A model generated the notes under the pieces. That model had not been told where the DNA came from, did not search any database, and saw only the letters and a program-made list of their open reading frames with translations. Of a DNA stretch of 32,000 bases, positions 4,797 to 30,529 are shown in pieces. The stretch lies in assembly GCF_000013905.1 (NCBI RefSeq), contig NC_007969.1, forward strand, positions 450,001-482,000. The letters run 5' to 3'. The translations under genes were made by a program, and so were the position numbers. Source of the stretch: Psychrobacter cryohalolentis K5 (GTDB lineage Bacteria > Pseudomonadota > Gammaproteobacteria > Pseudomonadales > Moraxellaceae). Position 1 is the stretch's first letter, and each line of letters begins with the position of its first letter.

Positions 4797-5237
4797 TTAG
4801 GGTCTAACGACAACATAGTCATTGGTATTAATAATAATTTCTGATGGTTGATCAACGACGATACGCACAACGTTACTATCAACGATTTGCGATTTGTAAT
4901 AGTTGTCTTCAGCAACCGTACAGCCTAAACAGCGACTCATGGCATTCCATGGTTCAACAAAGAGCTTCTGCTGTGCTTGGTCAGCATTACCGCCGATCAA
5001 AGAGAAGGGCAAACTGACGATGTAAGCGGCTGTACCTGCGACAGCTGCTATCAACTGTAATGGCTTGCCGACAACGGTATCTACAGCCATAGTCTCATAA
5101 GAGGGACCAAAATCTGTTTCATCAATTTCTATCGCTGCCAAAGCAGGTTGCATACTTGCAAAAGTTAAGCTGGCACTTATCAATACAGTTAATAGCTTAT
5201 ACTTTGCGGTGCATTTGGTGTTAGCTTGAGCAGTCAT
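4797..5237 (-). CDS. Hypothetical exported/membrane-associated protein
   Basis: 146 aa with an N-terminal signal-like segment (KLLTVLISASLTFASMQPALA/A), one further hydrophobic helix and a CLGC motif. I recognise no family. Confidence 0.55.
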   Translation of the reverse strand: MTAQANTKCTAKYKLLTVLISASLTFASMQPALAAIEIDETDFGPSYETMAVDTVVGKPLQLIAAVAGTAAYIVSLPFSLIGGNADQAQQKLFVEPWNAMSRCLGCTVAEDNYYKSQIVDSNVVRIVVDQPSEIIINTNDYVVVRP

Positions 5238-5537: not shown

Positions 5538-6461
5538 CTAATTAATTGGCTGACAAACAGGGCAGTAGACACTGGCACGTCCATTGAGCTTGATATTCTC
5601 TAAAACTGAATCACAGTGCGGACAAGTTTCACCTTGTCTACCATAGACATTCAAGGTTTGCTGGAAATAACCTGTTTGACCATCAGCAACCGTAAAGTCA
5701 CGTAGTGTTGAACCACCTAGCTTGATAGCTTTCTGTAAAATAGTTTTGATATGGGCGACTAAAATTACTATTTGATCATATGATATCTTATTTGCTGGAG
5801 TAGCAGGATGGATGCCTGAGAGGTATAAGCTCTCAGTGGCATAAATATTACCAACGCCGACCACAGCTTGCTGCTCCATAATGACTGACTTGATGGCTCG
5901 TTTGATAGGCTGCTTTTTAATCACTTTGCTGCTTTGAGTCTGGATGGACTGTTCGCTACGTTGGATAAGATAATACAAATAGTCTGCCGTAAAATCATCT
6001 GATAGTGGCTCAGGTCCTAAATGGTTTAGTAGTTTATCCCCGTAATCCTCAAGCCATAAGATAGAGCCGAAACGTCTAGGGTCATAATAATGTAGCTGAG
6101 TTTGAGTGTCGTCAGCGCCGATAAAACTCATGATCAAATGATCATGTTTGCGCTTATCGCTAGTATGATGATGTTGTTGCAAGCTACCTGACATCCCAAG
6201 ATGAATCAGAAGCTGTTTCGGCTGTAAATTCCTAGGTTCAACAGAAGATGAAATGCCATCATCAGCTAGCGGTATAAAATTGAGGATTAAATACTTTGCC
6301 CGTCGCTCAACGCTGTCCAATGTATAATCAATCAAATCTGATAAATTATCAGGCATCGACCAACGAAGCTTTGGTTGAAAGACTTGTACGTTGGTGACTT
6401 TTTGTCCTAATAAAGGCGTCAGACTGGTTTTTGTCGTTTCTACTTCTGGTAACTCAGGCAT
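5538..6461 (-). CDS. mutM: Formamidopyrimidine-DNA glycosylase (Fpg/MutM)
   Basis: The N-terminus MPELPEVET carries the catalytic Pro2/Glu3. An H2TH region is present, and the C-terminal zinc finger reads CPHC...CPVC. At 307 aa it is longer than typical Fpg, with apparent internal insertions. Confidence 0.92.
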   Translation of the reverse strand: MPELPEVETTKTSLTPLLGQKVTNVQVFQPKLRWSMPDNLSDLIDYTLDSVERRAKYLILNFIPLADDGISSSVEPRNLQPKQLLIHLGMSGSLQQHHHTSDKRKHDHLIMSFIGADDTQTQLHYYDPRRFGSILWLEDYGDKLLNHLGPEPLSDDFTADYLYYLIQRSEQSIQTQSSKVIKKQPIKRAIKSVIMEQQAVVGVGNIYATESLYLSGIHPATPANKISYDQIVILVAHIKTILQKAIKLGGSTLRDFTVADGQTGYFQQTLNVYGRQGETCPHCDSVLENIKLNGRASVYCPVCQPIN

Positions 6462-6500
6462 AGTATTTTATAAAATCTCTATTAAGAATTAAAGGTATTA

Positions 6501-9041
6501 TCAGGCAACAGCGCGGCGAGCATGTAAGATACCATGCTGTTGTTCAAGCTTAGCAAGTAACTTGGATAAATGTGCTAGCCCCGACACTTCAATATGAAAC
6601 TTTAAAAAGGCAATATTATCATCATTGCTCAGGGTTTGAACTTGACGAATATTGACGTTTTCTTTATCAATGATTTGGGTTAAATCGCGCAATAAACCAC
6701 GTCTATCATAAGCTTCTATATGAATATCAACTGGCTGATAGCGACCAGATTTAATCTTCCAAGCAGCCTTGATTTCGCGTTCAGGATCACGTTCAATCAG
6801 GCGCAGATATTCAGGGCAACCACGATTGTGAACACTGACACCGCGCGATAAAGTAATGTAGCCCGCGATAGGCTCACCGTGCACAGGGTGACAGCAGCCT
6901 GCCAAACCAACTTCAATGTTATCTAAGCCATCGATTTGGATTTTGTAAGCATCAAGCTTACCTGAATCTCTTTTATCGATAATAGGGGCAAAATCTTCTT
7001 CAGATCTTTCAGGCTCTAAATGCAGCTGACGAGAGATATGACTGGTAAGCTGATTTAGACCAATTTCACCCGTCACCAAACCAACCACAATATCGTCGGT
7101 ATTGTTGACATTAAAATGTTGCGTATAATCGTTTAAATCGATGCTATTCGGATGCACCGATAGACGTTCAAGCTCTTTACTGAGCATCTGACGCCCGATT
7201 TCGATATTCTTATCACGATCTTGTTTGTTAAACCATTGACGCAGTTTTGAGCGGGCACGATTGGTATGAATATAGCCTAGTGAAGCCACTAGCCAGTCGC
7301 GATTGGGCTCACGTGAAGATTTGGTAATAATCTCAACTTGCTCGCCCGTTTTGAGCTGATAAGTTAATGGTACATAACGCTGATTGACACGCGCTGCTTG
7401 GGCGCGGTTACCGACCTGCGTATGAACATAATAGGCAAAATCCAGCACAGTCGCGCCTTTTGGCAACTCCGTAATATCGCCATCACGACTAAATATGTAA
7501 ATGCGTTCGAGTTCATCAAAATCAACCAATTGCTCTTCATCATCATATTCAACTTCCTCTAATTCATCACCAGTTGATAAAGATGAGCGCGGCTGATTAT
7601 TGATAGACAGCAGTTGACGTAAAGAACTGATTCGCTGATTAAGGTAATTGTCCTTTTTGTTTTTGAGCCCTTCTTTGTAGTTGACATGGGCACACATGCC
7701 AAGCTCAGCTTCAAAGTGCATCTCTTGAGTACGAATCTGTACTTCAAGCGATTTGTTTTCAGCGATGACCGCAGTATGGAGTGAGCGATAACCGTTAGAT
7801 TTTGGATTGGTAATATAATCGTCAAATTGCTCAGGAATATAACGCCATAACCCGTGTACCAATCCTAGCACGTGGTAACAGTCTGAAGGAGTGGTCACCA
7901 ATACTCGCAGCGCACGGATATCGTACAGCTGATCAAAAGACAATCCTTTAAGCTTCATTTTTCGATAAATAGAATAAATGTGCTTTACGCGTCCTGAAAC
8001 TTCGCCCTCAATACCAGATTCTGCTAAAGACTCGTTCAGTCTATCTTGTACACGCTGGATATAAGACTCACGCTCGCTACGCTTTTCTGATAATAGTTTG
8101 GCAATTTCTTTATAACGATCAGGGGCAAGGTAGCGAAAGGCTAAATCTTCAAGCTCCCATTTCAGCTGGGCAATACCCAAGCGATGTGCCAATGGGGCAT
8201 AAATAGTCATGACTTCACGCGCCACGCGAGCTTGTCGAACTTCATTGGAAAAGGTCAGCTCGCGCATAGCAAAAGTGCGTTCAGCAAGTTTAATCAGTAC
8301 TACTCGGACATCGTTGGTGACTGAGATCAGCATGCTATAAATATTTGATAATTGATCCCGCTGATTATTTACGAAGTGATCTTCTAAGCGCTTATTGCTT
8401 TCGATAATCTCAGACAGTTGTCCCATCGCCAAGGTATCTTTAACCAAGGTTGAGATATCGGTGCCAAACTTTTTTTCGATTTCACTAAGACTAATAATCG
8501 ATTTGCGAGCACTACGATAGAGCATGGCAGCGACAAGGGCATCTTCATCCTGATAAAGGTAAGTTAAGATATCAGTCATGCCGATACCAGTCACGTAAGC
8601 GCCCGAACGCTCCGATTCACTGGTATTCATGTGATTACGGACGAATGTACAGGCAGCGCTAAGATTGGGTACTGAATCTTGCCCAATACGCTTTGCAACA
8701 TTATCAAGCCAAGTAGGTACATCAATATTGATTTGATTTAAATCTAACGCTTCAAGCTCTTGCTGTGAAAACGCCTCGGATTCATCAAGGATGTTATCCC
8801 TTAAATAGTCATTTTCAAGATTTGAGTCATGACTGTAGTAGGCGTAATTAACAGAGCGATCAAAGGTAGTATGGAGTTTATGAGTGGCAAGTTGATACTT
8901 GATATCTAGTGGGATTTGAGCATAGCTATTGGCAGACTGGTGCGAGCGTTGACTCGCGACCAGTTGCGCTGCCAAAGTTGCACTGTCGGCTTGCGTGGTT
9001 TGTCCATCTACCAGCGGTAATCCTTCACGAATTTTTACCAT
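6501..9041 (-). CDS. relA: GTP pyrophosphokinase RelA ((p)ppGpp synthetase I)
   Basis: 846 aa. The hydrolase-like region lacks the H..HD motif, as in RelA. The synthetase core (HRLGIAQLKWELEDLAFRY, YRSLHT), TGS domain and C-terminal ACT-like domain are present. It lies directly downstream of rlmD, as in E. coli and Pseudomonas. Confidence 0.88.
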   Translation of the reverse strand: MVKIREGLPLVDGQTTQADSATLAAQLVASQRSHQSANSYAQIPLDIKYQLATHKLHTTFDRSVNYAYYSHDSNLENDYLRDNILDESEAFSQQELEALDLNQINIDVPTWLDNVAKRIGQDSVPNLSAACTFVRNHMNTSESERSGAYVTGIGMTDILTYLYQDEDALVAAMLYRSARKSIISLSEIEKKFGTDISTLVKDTLAMGQLSEIIESNKRLEDHFVNNQRDQLSNIYSMLISVTNDVRVVLIKLAERTFAMRELTFSNEVRQARVAREVMTIYAPLAHRLGIAQLKWELEDLAFRYLAPDRYKEIAKLLSEKRSERESYIQRVQDRLNESLAESGIEGEVSGRVKHIYSIYRKMKLKGLSFDQLYDIRALRVLVTTPSDCYHVLGLVHGLWRYIPEQFDDYITNPKSNGYRSLHTAVIAENKSLEVQIRTQEMHFEAELGMCAHVNYKEGLKNKKDNYLNQRISSLRQLLSINNQPRSSLSTGDELEEVEYDDEEQLVDFDELERIYIFSRDGDITELPKGATVLDFAYYVHTQVGNRAQAARVNQRYVPLTYQLKTGEQVEIITKSSREPNRDWLVASLGYIHTNRARSKLRQWFNKQDRDKNIEIGRQMLSKELERLSVHPNSIDLNDYTQHFNVNNTDDIVVGLVTGEIGLNQLTSHISRQLHLEPERSEEDFAPIIDKRDSGKLDAYKIQIDGLDNIEVGLAGCCHPVHGEPIAGYITLSRGVSVHNRGCPEYLRLIERDPEREIKAAWKIKSGRYQPVDIHIEAYDRRGLLRDLTQIIDKENVNIRQVQTLSNDDNIAFLKFHIEVSGLAHLSKLLAKLEQQHGILHARRAVA

Positions 9042-13324: not shown

Positions 13325-16300
13325 ATGCCAGTAACAAAAACAGTAGTGGAGATGGTGCCCAGTATGGCTCACAAAAAACGTTTTGATACCAGTAGTGCTT
13401 ATGGTCAGCTGGTCATATTGGTATTTTTGCCCATCTGTTTACTCGCAGCAGTGGGCGGTATCTTGGTGTTTTATGAAACCATGCGTGCCAGTAATTCAGA
13501 GCAAGCAGTGTTGGCTGAGGCGGTACTTATCCGCTATTCACCTACGATTGCAGAGATAATACCTGAGCTATTAGAGCAAGATGCTGCCAAGATACAGATT
13601 TCAGAAAATAATAATGAAAACGCTGATGACAATAATAATAAAGTCTCGCAAGCTGCGATTGCAAAGTTAGAAGGCATCCAAGATAAACTCAGGCGTATGC
13701 GGGCAGAGCAACATGTTCAGCGTATCGCTATTATCAATCAGAGCAACGACATACTTGCGACAGTTGGCTATGGTACGGAAGAGGCGTGGCCTGTAATCGA
13801 TCCATCAGAGCGTTTTTTAGCGCAAAAATCCACTCCTATCGGTACCGCTTACGGCAGTATATTAGGTGAATTTGAGGGTCAAACACTGTGGTTATTAGTC
13901 GATATGGATAGTGAGCCGCTTTATATTGCGCGCTATCGTATCGCTATGGCATTGGTGATTACCGGTTTGTTTACATTATTAATTCTACTACTAAGTTTAA
14001 ACATTTATTCAAAACGTTGGATTGCGCCGATTTATGAGCTGCGGCTGCAATTACAGCGTACTCACGTAGATAATCTTTATCAGCCTATCCCCGTTGAATC
14101 GAATGGTGAGCTAAATCTATTACAACAAGACTTGGTGAGAACATTACGTCGTTTGTATGTCAGTTTTCAAGAGCTGAAAGAACATGCGGAGCAGACCGAA
14201 GATGATTTGCGTCTTGCTTTTGATGAAATGGAGATGCAAAACATCTCTATTCGTAATGCGCGTGATGCGGCAATCTCAACCAGCCAAGCCAAATCAGCGT
14301 TTTTAGCCAATATCAGTCATGAGCTGCGTACACCGCTCAATAGTATTGATGGTTTTATTAATTTGCTCGCGCGTCACGGTGAGCTCAATCCTGAGCAAGA
14401 CTTGTATGTACAAACCATTCGCAAATCGTCTGCGCACTTATTGGCATTAGTCAATGATGTGCTTGATTTCTCTAAAATCGAAGCGGGCAAGTTGGTACTA
14501 GATCGCCATGAGTTTGATCTTTATGACACTATCTATGATGTGGTCGATATGCTGTCGCCAGTGTCTGCAGAAAAAGGTCTGCGCATGGCGGTACTGTTTT
14601 ACAACGATGTGCCAATGCGTATCAATGGTGATGCGCTACGCCTCAAACAAGTACTAACCAATATTGTTGGCAATGCGATTAAATTTACTGATAGCGGTGA
14701 CGTGGTGGTGCGCGTCAGTTTAGATGACTATCAAGACAATTATTTGATGATTAGCGTGCAAGACAGTGGTAAAGGCATCTCGCTGTCTGATCAAAAAATG
14801 CTCTTTCAAAGCTTTAGTCAAGGAGACCCATCCATCACGCGTCAGTATGGTGGTACAGGACTGGGACTGGTCATCTCTAAACAATTAACACGGCTGATGG
14901 GCGGCGATATTGGTTTTTATGACAATATGCAAGAGAATATTTCCAATCAAGGCGCGACGTTTTGGTTTCGTATGCCAGCCCATGTTGATGTGGTAGAGGC
15001 AGCGACAGGACAAACCATTGAGCTGCCTGTATTGGCACCATTGGCAAGTGCGACTGATGAATTTAACGTTCTTATTTGGATTAATCATACCGCGTCTATA
15101 CAAGTACTGAAAGCTAGTCTGCATCATTTGCCTATTAAGCTAACCCAAGCCAATTCTTTGCCAGGTTTGCTTGAATCGTTAAAAGAGCGTGGTAATTATT
15201 GGGACTGGGTCATCGTTGATGATGATACCCAAGACGATATGATGGCGCTGCTTAAGCAAATCCGTTTACATTATCAAGGTAAACTGGCCGTCTTTGGTTA
15301 TCAAGTTGCCGCCGATCAAGCACTACTCAATCGTTACCATGCCAATATCTTGTATGAGCCATTAGACAAGAGACAGTTATATGCCATGCTAGATACGCAA
15401 AAGCGTAGTGTACCTACTGGTATTGCAGAACCACGTTGGAAAGGCGTTACCGTATTGGCAGTTGACGATCATTTGCCAAACTTACTGGTGCTTGATGCGC
15501 TGCTGAGCGAGCTTGGTATTCATGTTATTACGGCCAGTAATGGATTTGATGCGATAGAGCTAATCAGTAAACAACAAGCGAAAAATATCAAAGCTACCAA
15601 AACTGAAAAACAAAGCCTGTCGAAAAAAACTCAAATCTCAAAAGCGGTCACGCGAGATGATGTCAGTAAATCAGTGGTTAGCACGTTACATATCGAAGAC
15701 GTAACGACAGAAGAAAAGGGTAACGCACAACCTAAAGATAGGATCGATCTTATCTTTATGGATATTCAAATGCCACGTATGTCAGGGCATGAGGCGGCGA
15801 GACAAATCCGTAAGATTGAAGCCGCAGATAGTCATATTCCCATTATTGCACTGACTGCACATGGGCTAGCAGACGAGCGGGATAAATTAGTCGCTAGTGG
15901 TATCAATGATTATGTTGGTAAGCCTATTAGCCAGCCGCAGCTGCTACAAGTATTACAAAAATGGCTTGGACGTAATGCCTCGTCATCACCATTAACGGCA
16001 GAAAATGATGAGCATCCACAAGGTCTTGGCATAGCAGGTGACTTACAAGTATTAGACTCAAAAACCATTGACGCTCAAAATTCTGATGTACCAAATATGA
16101 TGCTACAACCTTCATCATCTGCGCCTAAAAATGCAGCGCCGCCTACCTATCAAATGATTCGAAGCGAGCAGGTTCAGAGTTATAAACCTACCAAGATGAG
16201 CAATGAGAAAAGAGTGAAGCGACCTCTGTCACTGAAAAAAATCCGTGATGACTACCTGCGTGACAGTCAACCACGTGAAGACTATCGGCGTGAAAACCTG

Positions 16301-16873
16301 CGCGAAACGCAGCCACGCTATGAAAATTTGCGTTTTCAAGAACAAGGGCAAGCAGCATTTGGCACGCGTTCTATTCAAACGCTCGATGATAATAAAGATG
16401 AACTATCAGTCAGTACTGTTTATTTGCAAAACGACAATAACTTAAATGCCTCTGTATTTAATACCTTGGATATTCTAGATTGGCAAGATGCATTGACGCG
16501 ATCAGCCAATAAGCCAGATCTTGCTGCCAAGCTAATCATTATGATGCTTGATACAATTAATGAGGAAAAACAAGCATTGACGCAAGCATGGGAGGCACAC
16601 AATCGCAGTATGCTCGCGCAAATCGCTCATCGGATATTGGGTGGCAGTCGTTATACGGGCGTGCCACAACTGCGCCAAGCCAGCCAAGATTTAGAAGATA
16701 AGTGCCTATTAAATATCCAACATACCACGCCTGCACAGTTTGCGATGTTAGAGCCTTATTATGAGGCTTTATTAACCGCTTTGAATAATTTGCAAACGCT
16801 TGATTTGTCTGCTTATCCGCAGCTTAATTACCATCGTCTAAGTGAAAACGATATGACTTGGAAAATGATTTAA
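13325..16873 (+). CDS. gacS: Hybrid sensor histidine kinase of the GacS/BarA type (2 TM + HAMP-like, HisKA, HATPase, receiver, C-terminal HPt)
   Basis: The H-box SHELRTPLN places His at 14318-14320. The N/G boxes read NAIKFT, DSGKGI and GGTGLGL. The receiver has VDD...FMDIQMP (Asp at 15761-15763)...KPI. The HPt motif is IAHRILGGS (His at 16628-16630). It is divergent from cysM, as gacS is in Pseudomonas. The start could instead be 13355 or 13367. Confidence 0.85.
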   Translation: MPVTKTVVEMVPSMAHKKRFDTSSAYGQLVILVFLPICLLAAVGGILVFYETMRASNSEQAVLAEAVLIRYSPTIAEIIPELLEQDAAKIQISENNNENADDNNNKVSQAAIAKLEGIQDKLRRMRAEQHVQRIAIINQSNDILATVGYGTEEAWPVIDPSERFLAQKSTPIGTAYGSILGEFEGQTLWLLVDMDSEPLYIARYRIAMALVITGLFTLLILLLSLNIYSKRWIAPIYELRLQLQRTHVDNLYQPIPVESNGELNLLQQDLVRTLRRLYVSFQELKEHAEQTEDDLRLAFDEMEMQNISIRNARDAAISTSQAKSAFLANISHELRTPLNSIDGFINLLARHGELNPEQDLYVQTIRKSSAHLLALVNDVLDFSKIEAGKLVLDRHEFDLYDTIYDVVDMLSPVSAEKGLRMAVLFYNDVPMRINGDALRLKQVLTNIVGNAIKFTDSGDVVVRVSLDDYQDNYLMISVQDSGKGISLSDQKMLFQSFSQGDPSITRQYGGTGLGLVISKQLTRLMGGDIGFYDNMQENISNQGATFWFRMPAHVDVVEAATGQTIELPVLAPLASATDEFNVLIWINHTASIQVLKASLHHLPIKLTQANSLPGLLESLKERGNYWDWVIVDDDTQDDMMALLKQIRLHYQGKLAVFGYQVAADQALLNRYHANILYEPLDKRQLYAMLDTQKRSVPTGIAEPRWKGVTVLAVDDHLPNLLVLDALLSELGIHVITASNGFDAIELISKQQAKNIKATKTEKQSLSKKTQISKAVTRDDVSKSVVSTLHIEDVTTEEKGNAQPKDRIDLIFMDIQMPRMSGHEAARQIRKIEAADSHIPIIALTAHGLADERDKLVASGINDYVGKPISQPQLLQVLQKWLGRNASSSPLTAENDEHPQGLGIAGDLQVLDSKTIDAQNSDVPNMMLQPSSSAPKNAAPPTYQMIRSEQVQSYKPTKMSNEKRVKRPLSLKKIRDDYLRDSQPREDYRRENLRETQPRYENLRFQEQGQAAFGTRSIQTLDDNKDELSVSTVYLQNDNNLNASVFNTLDILDWQDALTRSANKPDLAAKLIIMMLDTINEEKQALTQAWEAHNRSMLAQIAHRILGGSRYTGVPQLRQASQDLEDKCLLNIQHTTPAQFAMLEPYYEALLTALNNLQTLDLSAYPQLNYHRLSENDMTWKMI

Positions 16874-19636: not shown

Positions 19637-20509
19637 ATGAAACTATTATATCGAGCGTTACCGATTATATTGAGTGTAGGCTTATTTGGGTGTGGAAATT
19701 CTTCTACCCAAGACAACGCTAATGCAGCTGGCGCAACAGTAACGGAACATAAAGACAATTTTGTCAGTAAACTTCCTGCTACAGCACCGACATTAAAGGT
19801 GGCAATGACTGGTGATTTACCGCCTTTCTCATTTCAAGATGATTATGGCAACATGCAAGGCACTGATGTCGATTCGATTAGAGCCATTGGGGAAGAGCAA
19901 GGCTTTAAAGTCGAATTCTACAAAGAGTCATGGCAGGATATGTTCGATAGTGTGGAATCGGGAAAGCGTGATTTAGCTATTTCTGGTATTTCTTATAAAG
20001 ATGATCGTGCAATTAGATATGGTCTATCAACGCCTTACTTTTTTAATCCAGCTACTATTATGTATTTGGAAGGAAAGTTTGATATCAAAGATTTAAACGA
20101 TATCAAAGGTCTAAAAACAGGTACTTTAGAGGGTTCTAAAGAAGAAGACACTCTAAAAGAGATGGGCAGCTCAGTTGAGCTGGTTTCAAGATCTACTGCA
20201 TTTTTGGCTTATCAGGACTTAGTTCAAGGTAATACTGATGTGTTCTTATATGATATGCCAGTTTTGCAATACATTATAAAAGGTTATCCAGAACATAAAG
20301 TTAAGATTGTCCCTTATGAAGCAGCGGATGCGCCTTCAGCACAGCAAGTCGTGTTGATGGCAAAAGAAAATACCAAGCTGATCAAGAGTGTAAATGAAGG
20401 CATTACCAAGCTAAAAGCAAAAGGCACATTTAAAGAGATTGAAGAGAAATGGCTGGGTGCGACTGAGCCTGCGACCAAAAGTACTTCAAATAATCAGCAA
20501 TCGAGCTAA
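19637..20509 (+). CDS. Periplasmic solute-binding lipoprotein (family-3 / amino-acid-type SBP fold)
   Basis: Lipobox LSVGLFG-C follows a signal peptide, and AGGA lies upstream. The two-lobed PBPb pattern is present (LKVAMTGDLPPFSF, DLAISGISYKDDR, YDMPVLQY). No ABC permease or ATPase gene is adjacent. Confidence 0.8.
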   Translation: MKLLYRALPIILSVGLFGCGNSSTQDNANAAGATVTEHKDNFVSKLPATAPTLKVAMTGDLPPFSFQDDYGNMQGTDVDSIRAIGEEQGFKVEFYKESWQDMFDSVESGKRDLAISGISYKDDRAIRYGLSTPYFFNPATIMYLEGKFDIKDLNDIKGLKTGTLEGSKEEDTLKEMGSSVELVSRSTAFLAYQDLVQGNTDVFLYDMPVLQYIIKGYPEHKVKIVPYEAADAPSAQQVVLMAKENTKLIKSVNEGITKLKAKGTFKEIEEKWLGATEPATKSTSNNQQSS

Positions 20510-20521
20510 GGGACTATAAAG

Positions 20522-22723
20522 ATGGCAACCACACACAATGTCGATAATAAGCGCTATCGCAGTCTGATTATTTCGATTGCATTATTTTTATCTTTGATTG
20601 GCGCCTTGCTAGCGTTTACTTTTTATACCTCAAGCTTGCTTGAAAGAAATACAGTTTTAATTGATAAAACCAACCAAGTTGCTAATAGCGCCCAAGCGGT
20701 AATTAAAGACTTATTCGACTTGGACAGCAGTTACGGTGAAGACACCAACTCGCCGCATATACAACGAGTATTAGAGCGTTTGGAGCAAAATACAGCGCTT
20801 ATTACTAGCTCTATCACTGCTATTGAACAGGGTGGTGAAATTACCGATGTCGATGGTAAAAGCTATGACTTACCGAAGATTAATAATAACTCTCAAACCA
20901 AAGTCGCTGCGGCGAATGAGCAGTGGTTACTTTTAGAGCCTAAGATTCAGACTTACCTTAAAGACGCTGACAACATCATGGTCGATTCATCTGATGAATT
21001 GATTCAAGCGGTTGAACAGGCAAAAACATCGAGTCTACTAATTAACGATTCGTTAGACCAGCTCACCGATGAAGTGTTTATCAACGCTGAACGCCAAGCA
21101 GACACTATCCGCCTAATTCAGATATTAGGGGTTGCAGCTATTTTTGCTTACTTCCTAATCTTCGTATTTTTCTTTGTACGTCGTCTGCGTGATACCGATG
21201 CTGAAGCGTTGGCCGCTCGTCGTGAAACGCAAGAAATTATGGAAACGGTTAATACCGGCCTGTTCTTGTTGGATAAGGACTTGAATATTGGTCAGCAGCA
21301 TTCTCGCGCGCTTAACGGCATTATTGGTGAGGATAGGTTGGCAGGAGAAAACTTTGCTGATGTACTGCGTGGCCGTATTTCAGACAAGGATTTGAGAACC
21401 ACCCGTCAGTTTATCGAGCAGTTATACAATCCACGTGTCAAAGAAAAGCTGGTTGATTCTTTGAATCCTTTGCATAAAGTCATGCTACACAATGCGTCTG
21501 GAGAGGAGAGTACGACCAGTCGCTTCTTAGACTTTAAGTTTTCACGTGTTTATGAAGATAAAGACATTGCCCGTATTTTGGTCAACGTCAATGACGTCTC
21601 AGATGCAGTATATTTAGAGCAGCGCCTAGAAAAAGAACGCTCGCAAAATGATATGCAGATTGAGATGTTGACGACCATCTTAAACGTGAATCCAAAAATT
21701 ATTAATGAGTTTATTAGTAATACCAAAGCTCACATCGATAAGATGAACAATATCTTGAAAAATCCTGGTAGCTCGCAATTTGAATTAGAAGGGAAGCTAA
21801 AAGCGATTTATCGTGAAATGCATAGCCTAAAAGGTGAGGCATCTGCGCTTAAACTGCATAGCTTTACCAAAATCGCATCAGACGCTGAAGACAAGCTTGA
21901 TGCGCTGCAAAATCAAGGCAAGCTGTCGGGTAATAACTTCTTACCGCTCGCCGTGCATTTGGATGACTTATTGAGCCTATCGAATACCATTGAAACGCTA
22001 GGTGAACGTATCAATCAGGCAGCGCCAAAAGCTAACAATAATGCAAAACCTGTAATGTCAGTAAAGACTGCAACACAACCAAGTGTTGTCCAAGCTCAAG
22101 TAGCAGACGTTGCTACCATTAACATAAATGTCGATGGCGGTAATGAAATCGATTTGAGCGATGAGTCAGATGACGAGCATCTATCTTATTACCAAGATTT
22201 TGCTAAAGATATTGCTATTAGACAGGGCAAGAAAATACAGCTTAACGGTCATAATTTAGCACATATAAACATCCCTGAACGCCTCAAACAACCGATCAAA
22301 GAAATCAGTATTCAGTTGCTACGTAATGCAGTGGTACATGGTATCGAATCACCTGAAGCGCGTCAGTCAGCGGGCAAGTCTGCCATCGGTAGTATCGACT
22401 TAGAAATGCAACGTGACAGTCAAAACTTAATCATCGCACTGCAAGATGATGGTCAAGGTATTGATTATGAAGGCATTCGTTATAAGCTGATTGCTGATGG
22501 TCGTTTCACGCAAGAAGAGGCGAGTCAGATGACTCATGGTGATCTGCTCAAAACCTTGTTTGCTTCTGGTTTCTCGACCAAAGAACATGCCGATGAAGAT
22601 GGTGGTCGCGGTGTGGGCTTAGACGTTATCAAGGCGTTGGTCAAAGAGCACAACGGTAAGCTGAATGTAAATACTGAGCTTGGAAAAATGACCCGTTTTG
22701 TCATCACCTTGCCTGCTGCGTAA
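20522..22723 (+). CDS. Membrane-anchored CheA-class (HPt-type) histidine kinase: TM1, helical periplasmic domain, TM2, PAS-like region, HPt, CheA-type HATPase; no recognisable P3 dimerisation or P5/CheW domain
   Basis: TM segments lie at about aa 15-35 and 196-219. The HPt motif is EMHSLKGEASALKL (His codon 21821-21823). The CheA-P4-like block is GKKIQLNGH...LLRNAVVHGIESPEARQSAGKSAIGSIDL, with DDGQGID and GRGVGLDV. The protein ends right after the ATPase domain. Confidence 0.8.
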   Translation: MATTHNVDNKRYRSLIISIALFLSLIGALLAFTFYTSSLLERNTVLIDKTNQVANSAQAVIKDLFDLDSSYGEDTNSPHIQRVLERLEQNTALITSSITAIEQGGEITDVDGKSYDLPKINNNSQTKVAAANEQWLLLEPKIQTYLKDADNIMVDSSDELIQAVEQAKTSSLLINDSLDQLTDEVFINAERQADTIRLIQILGVAAIFAYFLIFVFFFVRRLRDTDAEALAARRETQEIMETVNTGLFLLDKDLNIGQQHSRALNGIIGEDRLAGENFADVLRGRISDKDLRTTRQFIEQLYNPRVKEKLVDSLNPLHKVMLHNASGEESTTSRFLDFKFSRVYEDKDIARILVNVNDVSDAVYLEQRLEKERSQNDMQIEMLTTILNVNPKIINEFISNTKAHIDKMNNILKNPGSSQFELEGKLKAIYREMHSLKGEASALKLHSFTKIASDAEDKLDALQNQGKLSGNNFLPLAVHLDDLLSLSNTIETLGERINQAAPKANNNAKPVMSVKTATQPSVVQAQVADVATININVDGGNEIDLSDESDDEHLSYYQDFAKDIAIRQGKKIQLNGHNLAHINIPERLKQPIKEISIQLLRNAVVHGIESPEARQSAGKSAIGSIDLEMQRDSQNLIIALQDDGQGIDYEGIRYKLIADGRFTQEEASQMTHGDLLKTLFASGFSTKEHADEDGGRGVGLDVIKALVKEHNGKLNVNTELGKMTRFVITLPAA

Positions 22724-22743: not shown

Positions 22744-23106
22744 ATGTATAAATTAATGATCGTCGATGATTCAAATATCATTCGAAACCGTATTCAGCGC
22801 GCTTATGACTCGGGTCAATTCATGTTGGTTGCTACAGCAACCAGTGGGGTTCAAGCGCTTGAAAAGTTCAATATTCATCGTCCAGATGTGGTGACCATGG
22901 ATTTGACCATGCCGCAAATGGACGGTCTTGAGTGTATTGAAAAAATCATTGCTATCGACCCTGACGTTCGTATCTTGGTTGTCTCAGCCTTGTCTGACAA
23001 ATCTACTGGCATTGAAGCGTTATCATTGGGCGCGAGTGGGTTCTTGTGCAAGCCTTTTTCAGAAGAAGAGCTGGTAGAGTCTTTGTATGAGTTGGTACAA
23101 GACTAA
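22744..23106 (+). CDS. Stand-alone CheY-like response-regulator receiver
   Basis: 120 aa with D8-D9, phospho-acceptor D53 (22900-22902, TMDLTMP), S81 and K103 (CKPF). There is no output domain. Confidence 0.9.
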   Translation: MYKLMIVDDSNIIRNRIQRAYDSGQFMLVATATSGVQALEKFNIHRPDVVTMDLTMPQMDGLECIEKIIAIDPDVRILVVSALSDKSTGIEALSLGASGFLCKPFSEEELVESLYELVQD

Positions 23107-23152: not shown

Positions 23153-23602
23153 ATGAAAGAGCAAAATTTACAAATTTTTGTGAGTATTATTACCAACTAT
23201 TTTACTCAGTTTGGTAATGATGAGTTGGTGGTCGATACGCCTTACTTGTTAGAAAACCAACAGCCAAAAGTCCATGATTATACGGGCGTCATCGGTATAT
23301 CAGGGGTGCAAAAAGGGGTGGTTTATTTTACGGCGACCACGGCGCTATTGAGCAGTATTCTAGACAGTATGGGCGAGATAGATAAAAGTGAGGACAATCT
23401 AGTCGATTTAGCAGGCGAGGTTGCCAATACGGTTTCGGGTAATGCCCGTCACGAGTTTGGTCCAGAATTTCATATCTCTGTCCCGTTTGTCTTTAAAGGC
23501 TCGCCGCAAAGTATCATTTTGCCTAAAAGTGGACGTTCTTTTATCATTCCAGTGAGTTGGCGCAGTCAAATCGGAGAGATTGTGGTTTGTTTGCAAGATT
23601 GA
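23153..23602 (+). CDS. CheX-like CheY-P phosphatase (CheC/CheX/FliY superfamily), paralogue 1
   Basis: 149 aa. The motif GEVANTVSGNA contains the ExxN catalytic pair (E 23417-23419, N 23426-23428). Length and pattern match CheX. Confidence 0.75.
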   Translation: MKEQNLQIFVSIITNYFTQFGNDELVVDTPYLLENQQPKVHDYTGVIGISGVQKGVVYFTATTALLSSILDSMGEIDKSEDNLVDLAGEVANTVSGNARHEFGPEFHISVPFVFKGSPQSIILPKSGRSFIIPVSWRSQIGEIVVCLQD

Positions 23603-23643: not shown

Positions 23644-24093
23644 ATGGTTAATGTAGAAAAGTTAGGCGTCTTTTTAAGTTCAATCAGTGCATTTTTTGCG
23701 CAGATTGATGCTGAGGCAGTGGTCATTGATACGCCTTACCTAAACAGTAATAAAAATGCTGTTGGTTATGATTATAGTGGCATGATTAAAATATCTGGAC
23801 CGCTTGAAGGCTGTGTCTATGTCAGTGCTCCAAGCACTATGTTGCGTGAAGTTATCAAAGTGATGGGCGAGCCTGACTCCTCTATGACGATGATGAAAGA
23901 CTTGCTTGGTGAGATGGCAAATACCATCTCTGGCAACGCTCGTACCGAGTTTGGTGCCGATTTTATTATCTCACCGCCCAAGATTATTGAAGGGGTACCC
24001 AGTATTCCTTATCTGCCAAAAGACCGCCAAAGCTATGTCACGCCATTTACGTGGCGAGGCTATAAAGCAGTTATCGGTATCAGTATTGCTTAA
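23644..24093 (+). CDS. CheX-like CheY-P phosphatase, paralogue 2
   Basis: 149 aa and colinear with paralogue 1 without gaps. The motif GEMANTISGNA contains ExxN (E 23911-23913, N 23920-23922). Confidence 0.75.
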   Translation: MVNVEKLGVFLSSISAFFAQIDAEAVVIDTPYLNSNKNAVGYDYSGMIKISGPLEGCVYVSAPSTMLREVIKVMGEPDSSMTMMKDLLGEMANTISGNARTEFGADFIISPPKIIEGVPSIPYLPKDRQSYVTPFTWRGYKAVIGISIA

Positions 24094-26484: not shown

Positions 26485-26509
26485 TGAACTGACCCCCATA
26501 AGTTGGACA
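26485..26509 (+). repeat. IS3-family left terminal inverted repeat (IRL)
   Basis: See the element entry; it starts with TG. Confidence 0.85.
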
Positions 26510-26529
26510 CAACTTTTGGGGGTTATTTT

Positions 26530-27048
26530 ATGAAGTATGACATCGACTTTAAACTAGGGGTGATAGCCTATTATCAACAAGGACATTCAGGCCTTGCTAC
26601 CGCAAAGCATTTTAATATTAATGATAAAGATGTTTTTAAGTGGGTAAACCAGTATTTAAAAGACGGTATACTTGCAATCAAACCTAAAACTAGCAAAGCC
26701 ATCTACAGTAGCGAGTTCAAGCTTCAAGTCCTGACTACAATGGCAGGTGAAGGTTTAAGTCAATCGCAAGCCGCCTTGAGGTTTAACATTAGCTCACCTG
26801 TGCTGATTAGTGTATGGCGCACAGCCTATGCCCGTCATGGTATGCTAGGCTTAACTGCCAAAGCTAAAGGACGACCCACTGTGAAGCACCCTTATCTCAC
26901 TGACAAACCTGATCATGAAAAGAGTATAGAAGAGATCAAACGCGAGAATGAGTATCTACGCGCGGAGAACGCCTATTTAAAAAAGCTCGATGCCTTGCTC
27001 AAAGAGAGGAAAGCCAATCAGACAAAGCAAGGCTCGTCAAAGGACTAA
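26530..27048 (+). CDS. IS3-family transposase OrfA (HTH plus leucine-zipper-like C-terminus)
   Basis: The likely start is MKYDIDF at 26530; the ORF opens at 26503, inside the IR region. HTH-like segments are followed by a heptad-like EIKRENEYLRAENAYLKKLDALL. Confidence 0.85.
   Translation: MKYDIDFKLGVIAYYQQGHSGLATAKHFNINDKDVFKWVNQYLKDGILAIKPKTSKAIYSSEFKLQVLTTMAGEGLSQSQAALRFNISSPVLISVWRTAYARHGMLGLTAKAKGRPTVKHPYLTDKPDHEKSIEEIKRENEYLRAENAYLKKLDALLKERKANQTKQGSSKD
26979..26985 (+). promoter_or_regulatory. Programmed -1 ribosomal frameshift heptamer A_AAA_AAG (orfA to orfB)
   Basis: In the orfA frame the codons read TTA AAA AAG (L-K-K). The -1 frame is open from here into orfB (KKARCLAQREES...IARSSFYYHVHALK). 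An 8-bp stem, GCCTTGCT 26992-26999 / AGCAAGGC 27026-27033, begins 6 nt downstream. Confidence 0.8.
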
Positions 27049-27875
27049 GAGATCAGCATCCGCTAGCTTTACTATTACTCATTGCAGATATAGCAAGAAG
27101 CAGCTTTTACTATCATGTGCATGCATTAAAAGCTGATGATAAGTATGCCGATCTTAAACAGCGTATCAGTGACATCTATCATTACCATAAAGGTCGATAT
27201 GGCTATCGTAGAATCACTCAAACGCTTAAGAACGAAGGAATAAGATACAACCACAAGCTCATCGCACGGCTTATGAACGAGCTTAAACTTACCGCGAGAA
27301 TCAGACGACAGAAGTATCGATCCTATAAAGGTCAGTGTGGCGTCATTGCCAAGAATAGAGTCAAACGCAGGTTCAGAGCGAAAGCGCCCAATCGCAGGTG
27401 GTTTACTGACATCACAGAGTTTAAAGTCGGTGATGAGAAGTTGTATCTGTCTCCTATACTAGACTGCTTCAACAATGAGATCATCAGTTATACGCTCTCA
27501 AGACGACCCGTATATGACTTGGTGAAACAGATGCTAGATAGTGCACTTAAGGGCATACCTACAAAGCGCAAGGAGACACTGACGCTGCATTCAGATCAAG
27601 GGTGGCACTATCAGATAAAACCGTTTGCGACAACGCTTGAAACGCATAAAATTAAACAGAGTATGAGTAGAAAAGGCAACTGCTTAGACAATGCGCTGAT
27701 GGAGAGCTTCTTCGGTACGCTAAAATGTGAAACTATTTATATTGAAAAGCCATCGAGTATTGAGGCTTTAGAGAAACAGATTCATAACTTTATGCTCTAC
27801 TACAATCATGAGAGAATTCAGATGAAACTAAAAGGACTAAGCCCTGTACAATACAGAACTCAGTCCTTGATTTAA
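26979..27875 (+). CDS. IS3-family transposase OrfB (DDE/RNase-H-like catalytic domain), expressed as an OrfAB fusion (26530..27875) by -1 frameshifting
   Basis: The frame is -1 relative to orfA. DDE-region motifs are present: WFTDITEF, LHSDQGWHY and NALMESFFGTLKCE. The ORF-track start at 27117 is an internal GTG. Confidence 0.85.
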   Translation, partial: KKARCLAQREESQSDKARLVKGLRDQHPLALLLLIADIARSSFYYHVHALKADDKYADLKQRISDIYHYHKGRYGYRRITQTLKNEGIRYNHKLIARLMNELKLTARIRRQKYRSYKGQCGVIAKNRVKRRFRAKAPNRRWFTDITEFKVGDEKLYLSPILDCFNNEIISYTLSRRPVYDLVKQMLDSALKGIPTKRKETLTLHSDQGWHYQIKPFATTLETHKIKQSMSRKGNCLDNALMESFFGTLKCETIYIEKPSSIEALEKQIHNFMLYYNHERIQMKLKGLSPVQYRTQSLI

Positions 27876-30085: not shown

Positions 30086-30529
30086 TCATTTTTGCTCATT
30101 AATGGTAGTGTTGCCGTTCATATCATTATTACGGTTCAGCCAACGATTGGATAACACGGCAAATCCCCAAATCGGTATCAGCGTACTAATCAGTATGGTA
30201 AGCATAAAGCCCCATAGCTCATCTCCTAAAGCAAATAACAGCAAGCCTGCACCGGCTGAAACTGGCAAAAAAGCAAAGCCACTATCGACAAGTAAAGTAT
30301 TACTCGCTTGGGTAAGCCAGCCTGGAATACCTTTGATAAATCGCCAAATCATCAGAATAAAAAACATGGTCAGTAAGCCGACGATATTGGCCGCTTTTTC
30401 AATACCCGCCAACTGACAGACAAATACTGCCGACTCACGCACAGTAACGACAATGGTGAGCGTCAGGAGTAATGCCATCCATAAGGGCATTTTTGAAGAA
30501 TGGGTAGACTTCATAAGCAAGTGGACCAC
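30086..30529 (-). CDS. lrgA: LrgA/CidA (YohJ) family holin-like membrane protein
   Basis: Four predicted TM helices, a size typical of the family, and pairing with lrgB. The start is uncertain: GTG 30529, ATG 30514 or ATG 30490. Confidence 0.72.
   Translation of the reverse strand: MVHLLMKSTHSSKMPLWMALLLTLTIVVTVRESAVFVCQLAGIEKAANIVGLLTMFFILMIWRFIKGIPGWLTQASNTLLVDSGFAFLPVSAGAGLLLFALGDELWGFMLTILISTLIPIWGFAVLSNRWLNRNNDMNGNTTINEQK

Follow-up and report, generated by a model that had tools for sequence, protein, structure and literature searches.

A class III-type transmembrane histidine kinase with CheA-type phosphorylation domains and its conserved gene cassette in Psychrobacter cryohalolentis

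The 32,000-nucleotide stretch of Psychrobacter cryohalolentis K5 DNA analysed here (termed the window; coordinates are counted from its first letter, and all features lie on the forward (+) strand unless marked otherwise) encodes at 20522..22723 a 733-residue transmembrane (TM) histidine kinase of the class III (HKIII) type. From its N- to its C-terminus this protein consists of a first TM helix, a periplasmic four-helix bundle, a second TM helix, a PAS domain, a histidine phosphotransfer (HPt) domain bearing His434, a disordered linker and an ATPase domain of the CheA P4 type. Together with the genes for an orphan solute-binding protein (SBP), a CheY-like response regulator and two CheX-family phosphatases, it forms a five-gene operon that is interpreted here, with a probability of roughly four in five, as the HKIII signalling module of a non-flagellated bacterium, working along the route proposed below. 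An earlier analysis of the sequence (the original prediction) had described the protein as a receptor and a kinase fused into one polypeptide that keeps the HPt-based chemistry of CheA. The structural parts of that description, namely a sensor joined to CheA-type HPt and P4 domains, are upheld throughout, and phosphorylation would follow from the motifs that they carry; the novelty that it implied is not upheld, inasmuch as the layout agrees with HKIII as reportedly defined in 2017.

Such an architecture suggests that the phosphorylation chemistry of CheA, with its domains P1 and P4, can be coupled to a membrane sensor of the ordinary kind and operate outside chemoreceptor arrays. The class is sizeable--about 1,200 clusters, defined at 50% identity, match this kinase alone--and, as far as a literature search showed, it is known solely from comparative genomics. 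In Psychrobacter/Moraxella the kinase is accompanied by the SBP as a candidate ligand-binding partner, which would make this version a practical entry point for biochemistry. Databases variously name the protein 'ATP-binding protein', 'Hpt domain-containing protein' and 'chemotaxis protein CheA'; the first and last of these labels are misleading for a non-flagellated organism.

Domain architecture of the kinase

The open reading frame has the ATG start and the extent originally assigned to it, and its product matches a Psychrobacter cryohalolentis protein with 100% identity, an identical copy being present on 5 contigs. A Pfam scan of this product yields two domains only: Hpt (residues 393-470) and HATPase_c (residues 597-732). 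Its best NCBIfam matches are CheA models, which score 144 and 95 bits and align through their P4 part alone, as against at most 37 bits for classical kinases; residues 555-732 align with positions 350-522 of the E. coli CheA model. A full-length AlphaFold2 (AF2) model, with a mean predicted local distance difference test score (pLDDT) of 83.8, was built on the aligned sequences of 40 diverse members of the family, and residues 30-395 were modelled separately for comparison by Foldseek. These 40 relatives were drawn from a library of 1.84 billion cluster representatives (clusters at 50% identity), since a direct homologue search, even when run with a family profile, returned almost nothing except Psychrobacter, including hundreds of full-length close orthologues that are 86-99% identical.

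At the C-terminal end of the protein, residues 545-733 (22154..22720) constitute an ATP-binding kinase domain of the CheA P4 type, as had been proposed; its sequence, its fold and its intact nucleotide-binding boxes all point to this assignment. The best solved relative is the P4 domain of T. maritima CheA, which is matched at E 7e-29 by the single sequence and at E 5e-53 by the family profile, with 30-36% identity. In Foldseek comparisons, the alpha/beta domain spanning residues 545-731 superimposes upon CheA P4, reaching a TMt of 0.85 at a root-mean-square deviation of 2.2-2.6 Å. The ATP-binding boxes (N, LLRNAVVHGIE at 599; G1, DDGQGID at 642; F, FASGFST at 680; and G2, GRGVGLD at 695) are all conserved in 40 of the 40 relatives, and Asn602 and His606 of the N box and the glycines of G1 and G2 are invariant in the family. 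The last P4 strand is also the C-terminal end of the kinase.

Preceding this domain are residues 391-500 (21692..22021), which form a P1-like HPt four-helix bundle. Pfam Hpt is matched with 28.5 bits, where 24.6 is the cut-off; among solved structures the family profile finds those of CheA P1 (1tqg and 2ld6; E 1e-7); and the AF2 model contains helices at residues 391-413, 419-442, 446-463 and 470-500. On the second of these helices, within the motif MHSLKGEA, lies His434 (codon CAT, 21821..21823, exactly where the original prediction had placed it), which is the predicted phospho-accepting histidine: it is kept in 39 of the 40 relatives, it is the sole histidine conserved among them outside the N box of P4, and K437 of the same motif is invariant. 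From these motifs it is inferred that the kinase would autophosphorylate on His434. Among the 40 relatives the only one with a threonine in place of the phospho-acceptor ('SDITSLKWS') is P0136, a protein of 751 residues from a metagenomic cluster of 4, which may be a degenerate or a non-phosphorylatable member.

The HPt and P4 domains are joined by a disordered, low-complexity tether (approximately residues 501-544; 22022..22153), which is poorly conserved and over which, at residues 503-548, pLDDT falls below 50. A low-complexity linker had indeed been foreseen at this location, but with a length of about 70 residues, whereas it spans approximately 45-55 (AF2-disordered at 503-544). Identity within the tether is 10-50% across most loci, and its length ranges from 6 to 74 residues in the 40 relatives. 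Across most Psychrobacter loci, in which the whole protein is about 77% identical, the PAS and HPt domains are 88-92% identical and P4 only 62-70%. Within this genus PAS identity spans 88-99% where that of P4 is 62-70%, and in the L009-L036 comparison P4 (62-70%) likewise evolves faster than PAS (88-90%) and HPt (89-92%), which is unusual for a kinase.

The N-terminal half of the protein is its sensing module. Hydropathy identifies exactly two hydrophobic segments, at approximately residues 13-35 and 196-219, and the roughly 160 residues between them form an acidic stretch (net charge -16). The two segments correspond to TM helix 1 (20558..20626) and TM helix 2 (21107..21178), and the intervening region (approximately residues 36-195; 20627..21106) is a periplasmic four-helix-bundle sensor of the PilJ/chemoreceptor type. 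In the AF2 model helix 9-69 comprises both TM helix 1 and periplasmic helix 1; it is followed by helix 78-103, a beta-hairpin (105-117) and helix 122-148, and then by a single unbroken helix (157-242) that comprises periplasmic helix 4, TM helix 2 and a cytoplasmic helix. A conserved GG (104-105) precedes the beta-hairpin, and W135 is conserved as well. Residues 246-358 display the PAS topology of two strands, four helices and three strands, which defines a cytoplasmic PAS domain (approximately residues 243-359; 21248..21598), and a connector helix (360-388) joins this domain to the HPt.

Foldseek comparisons relate the periplasmic part to the ligand-binding bundles of the chemoreceptors PcaY (TMt 0.70), Vc1313, Tar and Tsr, and the PAS part to FixL, Rv1364c (TMt 0.69), PA0861 and LOV PAS domains. 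In a comparison with the Protein Data Bank, the family profile picks up McpN through its PilJ domain (6gcv, E 0.004); a Pfam PilJ match is present in 14 of the 40 relatives and missing from the Psychrobacter kinase itself. Hence the helical periplasmic domain between two TM helices and the PAS-like region that follows, both of which had been read from the sequence, reappear in the hydropathy profile, the model or the structural matches, and the PilJ-like four-helix bundle, which had been named as something to check for, is seen in the model. A PilJ/NarX-like motif, 'AGRQRMLSQR', is kept by relatives such as those of Cellvibrio and is degenerate in Psychrobacter ('TNQVANSAQAVIKD'). In two Cellvibrio loci (L076 and L078) periplasmic helix 1 carries, at approximately residues 50-65, 'NLAGRQRMLSQRMAK', which resembles the nitrate-binding P-box of the NarX/McpN type.

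In Pfam searches at E<=1 the kinase contains no H-kinase_dim, CheW, P2/CheY-binding or HisKA domain, nor do any of the 40 relatives when scanned singly at E<=0.01; the claim that HisKA, P2, P3 and P5 are lacking therefore stands. Sensitive profile searches directed at H-kinase_dim and CheW, which had been suggested as a challenge to that claim, likewise found neither, and the connector helix (360-388) has no histidine conserved among the 40 relatives. Because the connection between HPt and P4 is unconserved and 6-74 residues long, and because 0-11 residues follow P4 in the 40 relatives, there is no room either for a dimerisation hairpin of about 60 residues or for a CheW fold. A hidden Markov model alignment with CheA P3P4 structures does extend back into helix 1 of P3. 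A P3 remnant was nevertheless rejected: the aligned segment consists of the fourth HPt helix (470-500) and the disordered linker; hhalign gives the family profile a probability of 0.07% against T. maritima P3 alone; and the linker is as short as 6 residues in some relatives.

Judged by its relatives, the gene belongs to a real and selected family and is no artefact. Among the cluster representatives, 1,184 clusters match the kinase at E<=1e-30. Nearly all of the best 150 are about 690-875 residues long and align over their whole length at 30-55% identity. Orthologues split at the linker, which had been named as possible evidence of a fusion artefact, were looked for and not found: in the best 150 clusters and in 80 loci nearly all are single, full-length genes, apart from a small number of fragmentary or frameshifted copies in draft assemblies. 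The longer ones among the best 150 owe their length to a second PilJ stretch or to a longer linker, and never to an added CheW or dimerisation domain. Length variants of this sort include P0222 (Psychrobacter sp. I-STPA10, 836 residues) and P0211, P0214 and P0235 (847-875 residues); one variant has about 250 residues between Hpt and HATPase_c, and others, among them a metagenome-assembled genome (MAG) of the Wenzhouxiangellaceae, have two periplasmic PilJ stretches.

The gene cluster and its solute-binding protein

The kinase gene is the second of five closely spaced genes on the same strand, in the order SBP, 12 nt, kinase, 20 nt, regulator, 46 nt, CheX-1, 41 nt, CheX-2, the first interval being that between the stop codon of the SBP gene and the kinase start. 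The regulator (22744..23106; 120 residues; Pfam Response_reg, 2e-28) is a CheY-like single-domain response regulator with D8, D9, D53, S81 and K103. The first CheX-family phosphatase (23153..23602; Pfam CheX, 3e-18; motif D85-x3-E-x2-N) and the second (23644..24093; Pfam CheX, 4e-20; motif D86-x3-E-x2-N) are each 149 residues long, and they are about 45% identical to one another, with the DxxxExxN motif in both. On its 5' side the cluster is bounded by a 367-bp AT-rich region, which starts with a hairpin and a T-run just past a gene of the major facilitator superfamily; rpsB and tsf lie downstream. A scan for promoters and terminators gave sites no more numerous than those in shuffled sequence, so such sites were left out of the definition of the operon. 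The 32-kb window lacks cheW, mcp, cheR and cheB genes, and the locus has no gene for a soluble chemoreceptor.

A locus scan with a single genome for each species yielded 598 related loci, of which the best 80 were examined. They belong to Psychrobacter, Moraxella, Faucicola, Enhydrobacter, Conchiformibius, Kingella, Neisseria, Suttonella and Cellvibrio, together with an Acinetobacter MAG and a further MAG that is labelled Francisella. Most of these host taxa belong to non-flagellated, piliated lineages. The order kinase, regulator, CheX is retained in nearly all of the best 80 loci and also in two metagenomic relatives at about 31% identity. The cassette thus extends from Psychrobacter to Neisseriaceae, Suttonella, Cellvibrio and metagenomic relatives at 31-35% identity, and its surroundings show no further conservation. 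The regulator occurs in every intact locus examined and, with few exceptions such as L077, where it lies about 850 bp downstream, directly adjoins the kinase. CheX occurs in all loci examined except L068 and L077, in two copies in most Moraxellaceae and in one copy in Neisseriaceae, Cellvibrio and others. In two Moraxella loci a second, divergent kinase (34-37% identity), together with a CheY, adjoins the cassette (L047:1031-3550 (-) and L053:12022-14032 (-)), which points to paralogous expansion.

The SBP gene (19637..20509) encodes an amino-acid-binding type of SBP (SBP_bac_3; Pfam, 4e-33), which also matches the NCBIfam models for Lys/Arg/Orn and for cystine SBPs and which, from its signal peptide (...GLFGC), is probably a lipoprotein. 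It is termed an orphan in that the window contains no nearby gene for a permease or ATPase of an ATP-binding cassette (ABC) transporter with which it might act. When loci are compared domain by domain, its divergence follows that of the periplasmic domain of the kinase: SBP identities of 87-97% go with periplasmic-domain identities of 77-99%, those of 61-69% with 75-90%, and those of 35-37% with 48-55%. Over 51 loci, the pairwise identities of the two have a Spearman correlation of 0.82. With the cytoplasmic part of the kinase controlled for, the partial correlation is 0.75 (permutation p<=5e-4); that of the SBP with the cytoplasmic part, when it is the periplasmic domain that is controlled for, is 0.06. 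In loci that lack the SBP gene the periplasmic domain is 12-23% identical, with the PAS domain still at 69-85%. In three loci of Kingella/Neisseriaceae an SBP gene is found 3' of cheX rather than upstream.

Kinases that are stimulated by an SBP through a helical-bundle sensor are an established mechanism, as exemplified by LytS-XylFII and TorS-TorT (PMC8050422). This precedent, the covariation and the lack of transporter genes together suggest SBP-assisted sensing, with the SBP as the proposed periplasmic co-sensor.

Elsewhere in the window lie several further elements. A GacS/BarA-type unorthodox hybrid kinase of 1182 residues, consisting of HisKA, HATPase_c, receiver and Hpt domains, is encoded at 13325-16873 (+), 3.6 kb 5' of the kinase gene; it is syntenic in most Psychrobacter and missing from the locus in other genera. 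Just past tsf is an IS3-family element (26503-27875 (+)) with a helix-turn-helix orfA (26503-27048) and an integrase-core orfB (27117-27875), and two open reading frames of 146-147 residues (4797-5237 (-) and 30086-30529 (-)) have no Pfam match at E<=1e-5.

Proposed signalling route and alternative explanations

As proposed here, a ligand--probably an amino acid or a related compound--would bind to the orphan SBP lipoprotein, which when loaded would dock on the periplasmic bundle of the kinase. The signal would then travel through TM helix 2 and the continuous helix 157-242 to the PAS domain, and from there through the connector helix 360-388 to the HPt, along elements that can be traced in the AF2 model. 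The P4 domain, held by a flexible linker of variable length, would bind ATP and phosphorylate His434, as the motifs of both domains indicate, and would do so without a P3 hairpin and without control by P5, CheW or a receptor array. Because these means of control are lacking, regulation would have to come from the kinase's own sensor and PAS module, in place of the dimerisation and histidine phosphotransfer (DHp) domain of classical kinases. The likeliest control point would be a PAS-dependent exposure either of His434 or of the docking surface for P4, given that the HPt occupies the DHp position and that PAS and HPt are the best conserved parts of the protein. The phosphoryl group would pass from His434 to Asp53 of the adjacent CheY-like regulator, and one or both of the CheX proteins, going by what is known of their family, would dephosphorylate the regulator and thereby provide a fast reset. 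Having no output domain, the regulator must act by binding a target; the output, according to the proposal made for HKIII in the literature, would be a type IV pilus-based behaviour.

Several points weigh against this interpretation. A literature search found no experimental study of the kinase or of any family member. A conserved output partner beside the cassette was looked for and not found, both in ten diverse loci and on two metagenomic contigs; the neighbouring genes there are unrelated and mostly of a housekeeping nature. Many family members have no SBP neighbour. Moreover, physical linkage by itself could account for the covariation of SBP and periplasmic domain: the 5' end of the kinase gene, which encodes the sensor, is contiguous with the SBP gene, and recombination may replace both jointly without any functional coupling between them.

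The last two of these points lead to the alternative that survives best, which concerns the input only and which carries an appreciable, though minority, share of the probability: the periplasmic bundle would be a direct ligand sensor, comparable to the nitrate-binding PilJ domain of McpN, and the SBP gene would be a mere co-transferred neighbour. On this explanation it would be natural that most family members outside the Moraxellaceae have no adjacent SBP gene, that Cellvibrio-type relatives keep the PilJ/NarX-like motif and that 14 of the 40 relatives match PilJ, and the linkage just described can account for the covariation. It fits less well with an SBP that has no transporter partner in the window, with the degeneration of the motif in Psychrobacter, with the coincidence of SBP loss and periplasmic-domain replacement, or with the three Kingella/Neisseriaceae loci, in which an SBP gene lies at the other side of the cassette. 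SBP-assisted sensing, which is preferred here, also has a more far-reaching form that is put forward tentatively and is somewhat doubtful: the SBP gene and the bundle-coding region may constitute an exchangeable input cassette upon a constant PAS-HPt-P4 core, in which case this HKIII would be an SBP-dependent receptor-kinase whose PAS domain acts as a direct gate on both a monomeric HPt substrate and a CheA-type catalytic domain held by a loose tether. If true, this would be a CheA-type kinase regulated without P3, P5, CheW or receptor arrays.

The phosphorylation step might also be explained differently, with the HPt serving as a phosphorelay station fed by another kinase, such as the GacS/BarA-type hybrid, and with P4 not being the enzyme that acts on His434. 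HPt domains are commonly relay modules and the hybrid kinase is a near and, in most Psychrobacter, a syntenic neighbour; this explanation is improbable all the same, given that the hybrid has a C-terminal Hpt of its own, that it is missing at the locus in Moraxella, Neisseriaceae, Cellvibrio and metagenomic relatives, all of which keep the cassette, that the P4 boxes are conserved without exception and that in CheA P1 and P4 are a cognate pair of substrate and enzyme.

Less probable again is that the protein is a true chemotaxis CheA, which would be incorporated into receptor arrays by way of separately encoded CheW and methyl-accepting chemotaxis proteins (MCPs). The database name 'chemotaxis protein CheA' speaks for this; that label probably stems from rules keyed on the CheA-type catalytic domain, such as that of MiST2, which calls any protein with such a domain CheA (PMC2808908). 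In a survey of thousands of CheA sequences, a core of Hpt, H-kinase_dim, HATPase_c and CheW was present in every one, and CheA is stated to lack a sensor domain (PMC10782961). By this definition the present kinase, which lacks two of the four core domains (those corresponding to P3 and P5) and has its own membrane sensor, is not a CheA. Neither the window nor any related locus examined contains a cheW or mcp gene, and the genus is described as non-motile, with type IV pilin genes (PMC11851457).

That the gene is a decaying or mis-assembled one, consisting of a truncated CheA and a sensor fragment, is the least credible explanation of all, since--apart from 3 of the 80 loci (L042, L052 and L070), where it is in two pieces or frameshifted--it encodes an identical protein on 5 contigs and has hundreds of full-length orthologues at 86-99% identity, the best 150 distant clusters being nearly all full-length, the 40 aligned relatives ending at P4 and the kinase motifs being intact. 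In each of these three loci (for L070, from Moraxella macacae, at 6001-8102) the kinase appears as two overlapping tblastn pieces, indicating a frameshift. The copy in L070 could be a genuine pseudogene; that in L052, where many genes are broken, is likely an assembly error.

Comparison with known systems

The class label HKIII is used here in the sense of Adebali et al. 2017 (J Bacteriol), where the class reportedly is defined by a sensor, an HPt and a CheA-like ATPase without a dimerisation domain. Its members are said to be encoded near a single-domain response regulator and CheX, and to occur in non-chemotactic organisms; many such systems reportedly also have a gene for a soluble chemoreceptor. 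The architecture of the present kinase and its cassette agree with this reported definition. In the defining features no difference was found between HKIII, so defined, and the kinase described here. The layout is thus reportedly already described as HKIII and is not new, and the novelty of an architecture within a class already described from genomes is low. A PilJ-type bundle, a co-varying orphan SBP and a duplicated CheX are seen here and may go beyond the original description. A passage in a later article, citing Adebali et al. 2017, states that type III kinases occur also in genomes without any chemotaxis genes, and that they always co-occur with a marker of type IV pilus motility (PMC6501615).

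With CheA the kinase shares a P1-like HPt containing H-x-x-K-G, a P4 domain, a CheY-type substrate and a CheX-type phosphatase; it differs from CheA in lacking P2, P3 and P5 and in having a PAS domain and, ahead of it, a periplasmic sensor flanked by two TM helices. Classical class I kinases have a HisKA/DHp domain with an H-box, whereas the kinase described here has neither. LytS-XylFII, TorS-TorT and LuxQ-LuxP (PMC8050422) have in common with it a helical periplasmic sensor between two TM helices and an adjacent gene for an SBP that acts independently of transport, and LytS shares its four-helix-bundle sensor as well. Those SBP-stimulated kinases, however, are classical ones, with DHp/HisKA and a classical catalytic and ATP-binding domain, as opposed to an HPt bundle and a CheA-type catalytic domain, and contact between SBP and sensor is a predicted feature of the present system.

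The PilJ domains of McpN (6gcv) and those resembling NarX/NarQ share with the periplasmic bundle its fold and a weak sequence match, relatives of the kinase scoring up to 86 bits on Pfam PilJ. In contrast to PilJ-type MCPs, the bundle is attached to a kinase rather than to an MCP signalling domain, and the AGRQRMLSQR-type motif is absent from helix 1 in Psychrobacter. A final parallel is provided by the split kinase CheA3/CheA4 of Cereibacter sphaeroides, in which a P4 domain phosphorylates a P1/HPt domain outside the canonical P1-P2-P3-P4 arrangement (PMC10782961). Unlike the kinase described here, both halves of that enzyme keep CheW, CheA4 keeps P3, and the enzyme is embedded in an array (PMC10782961).

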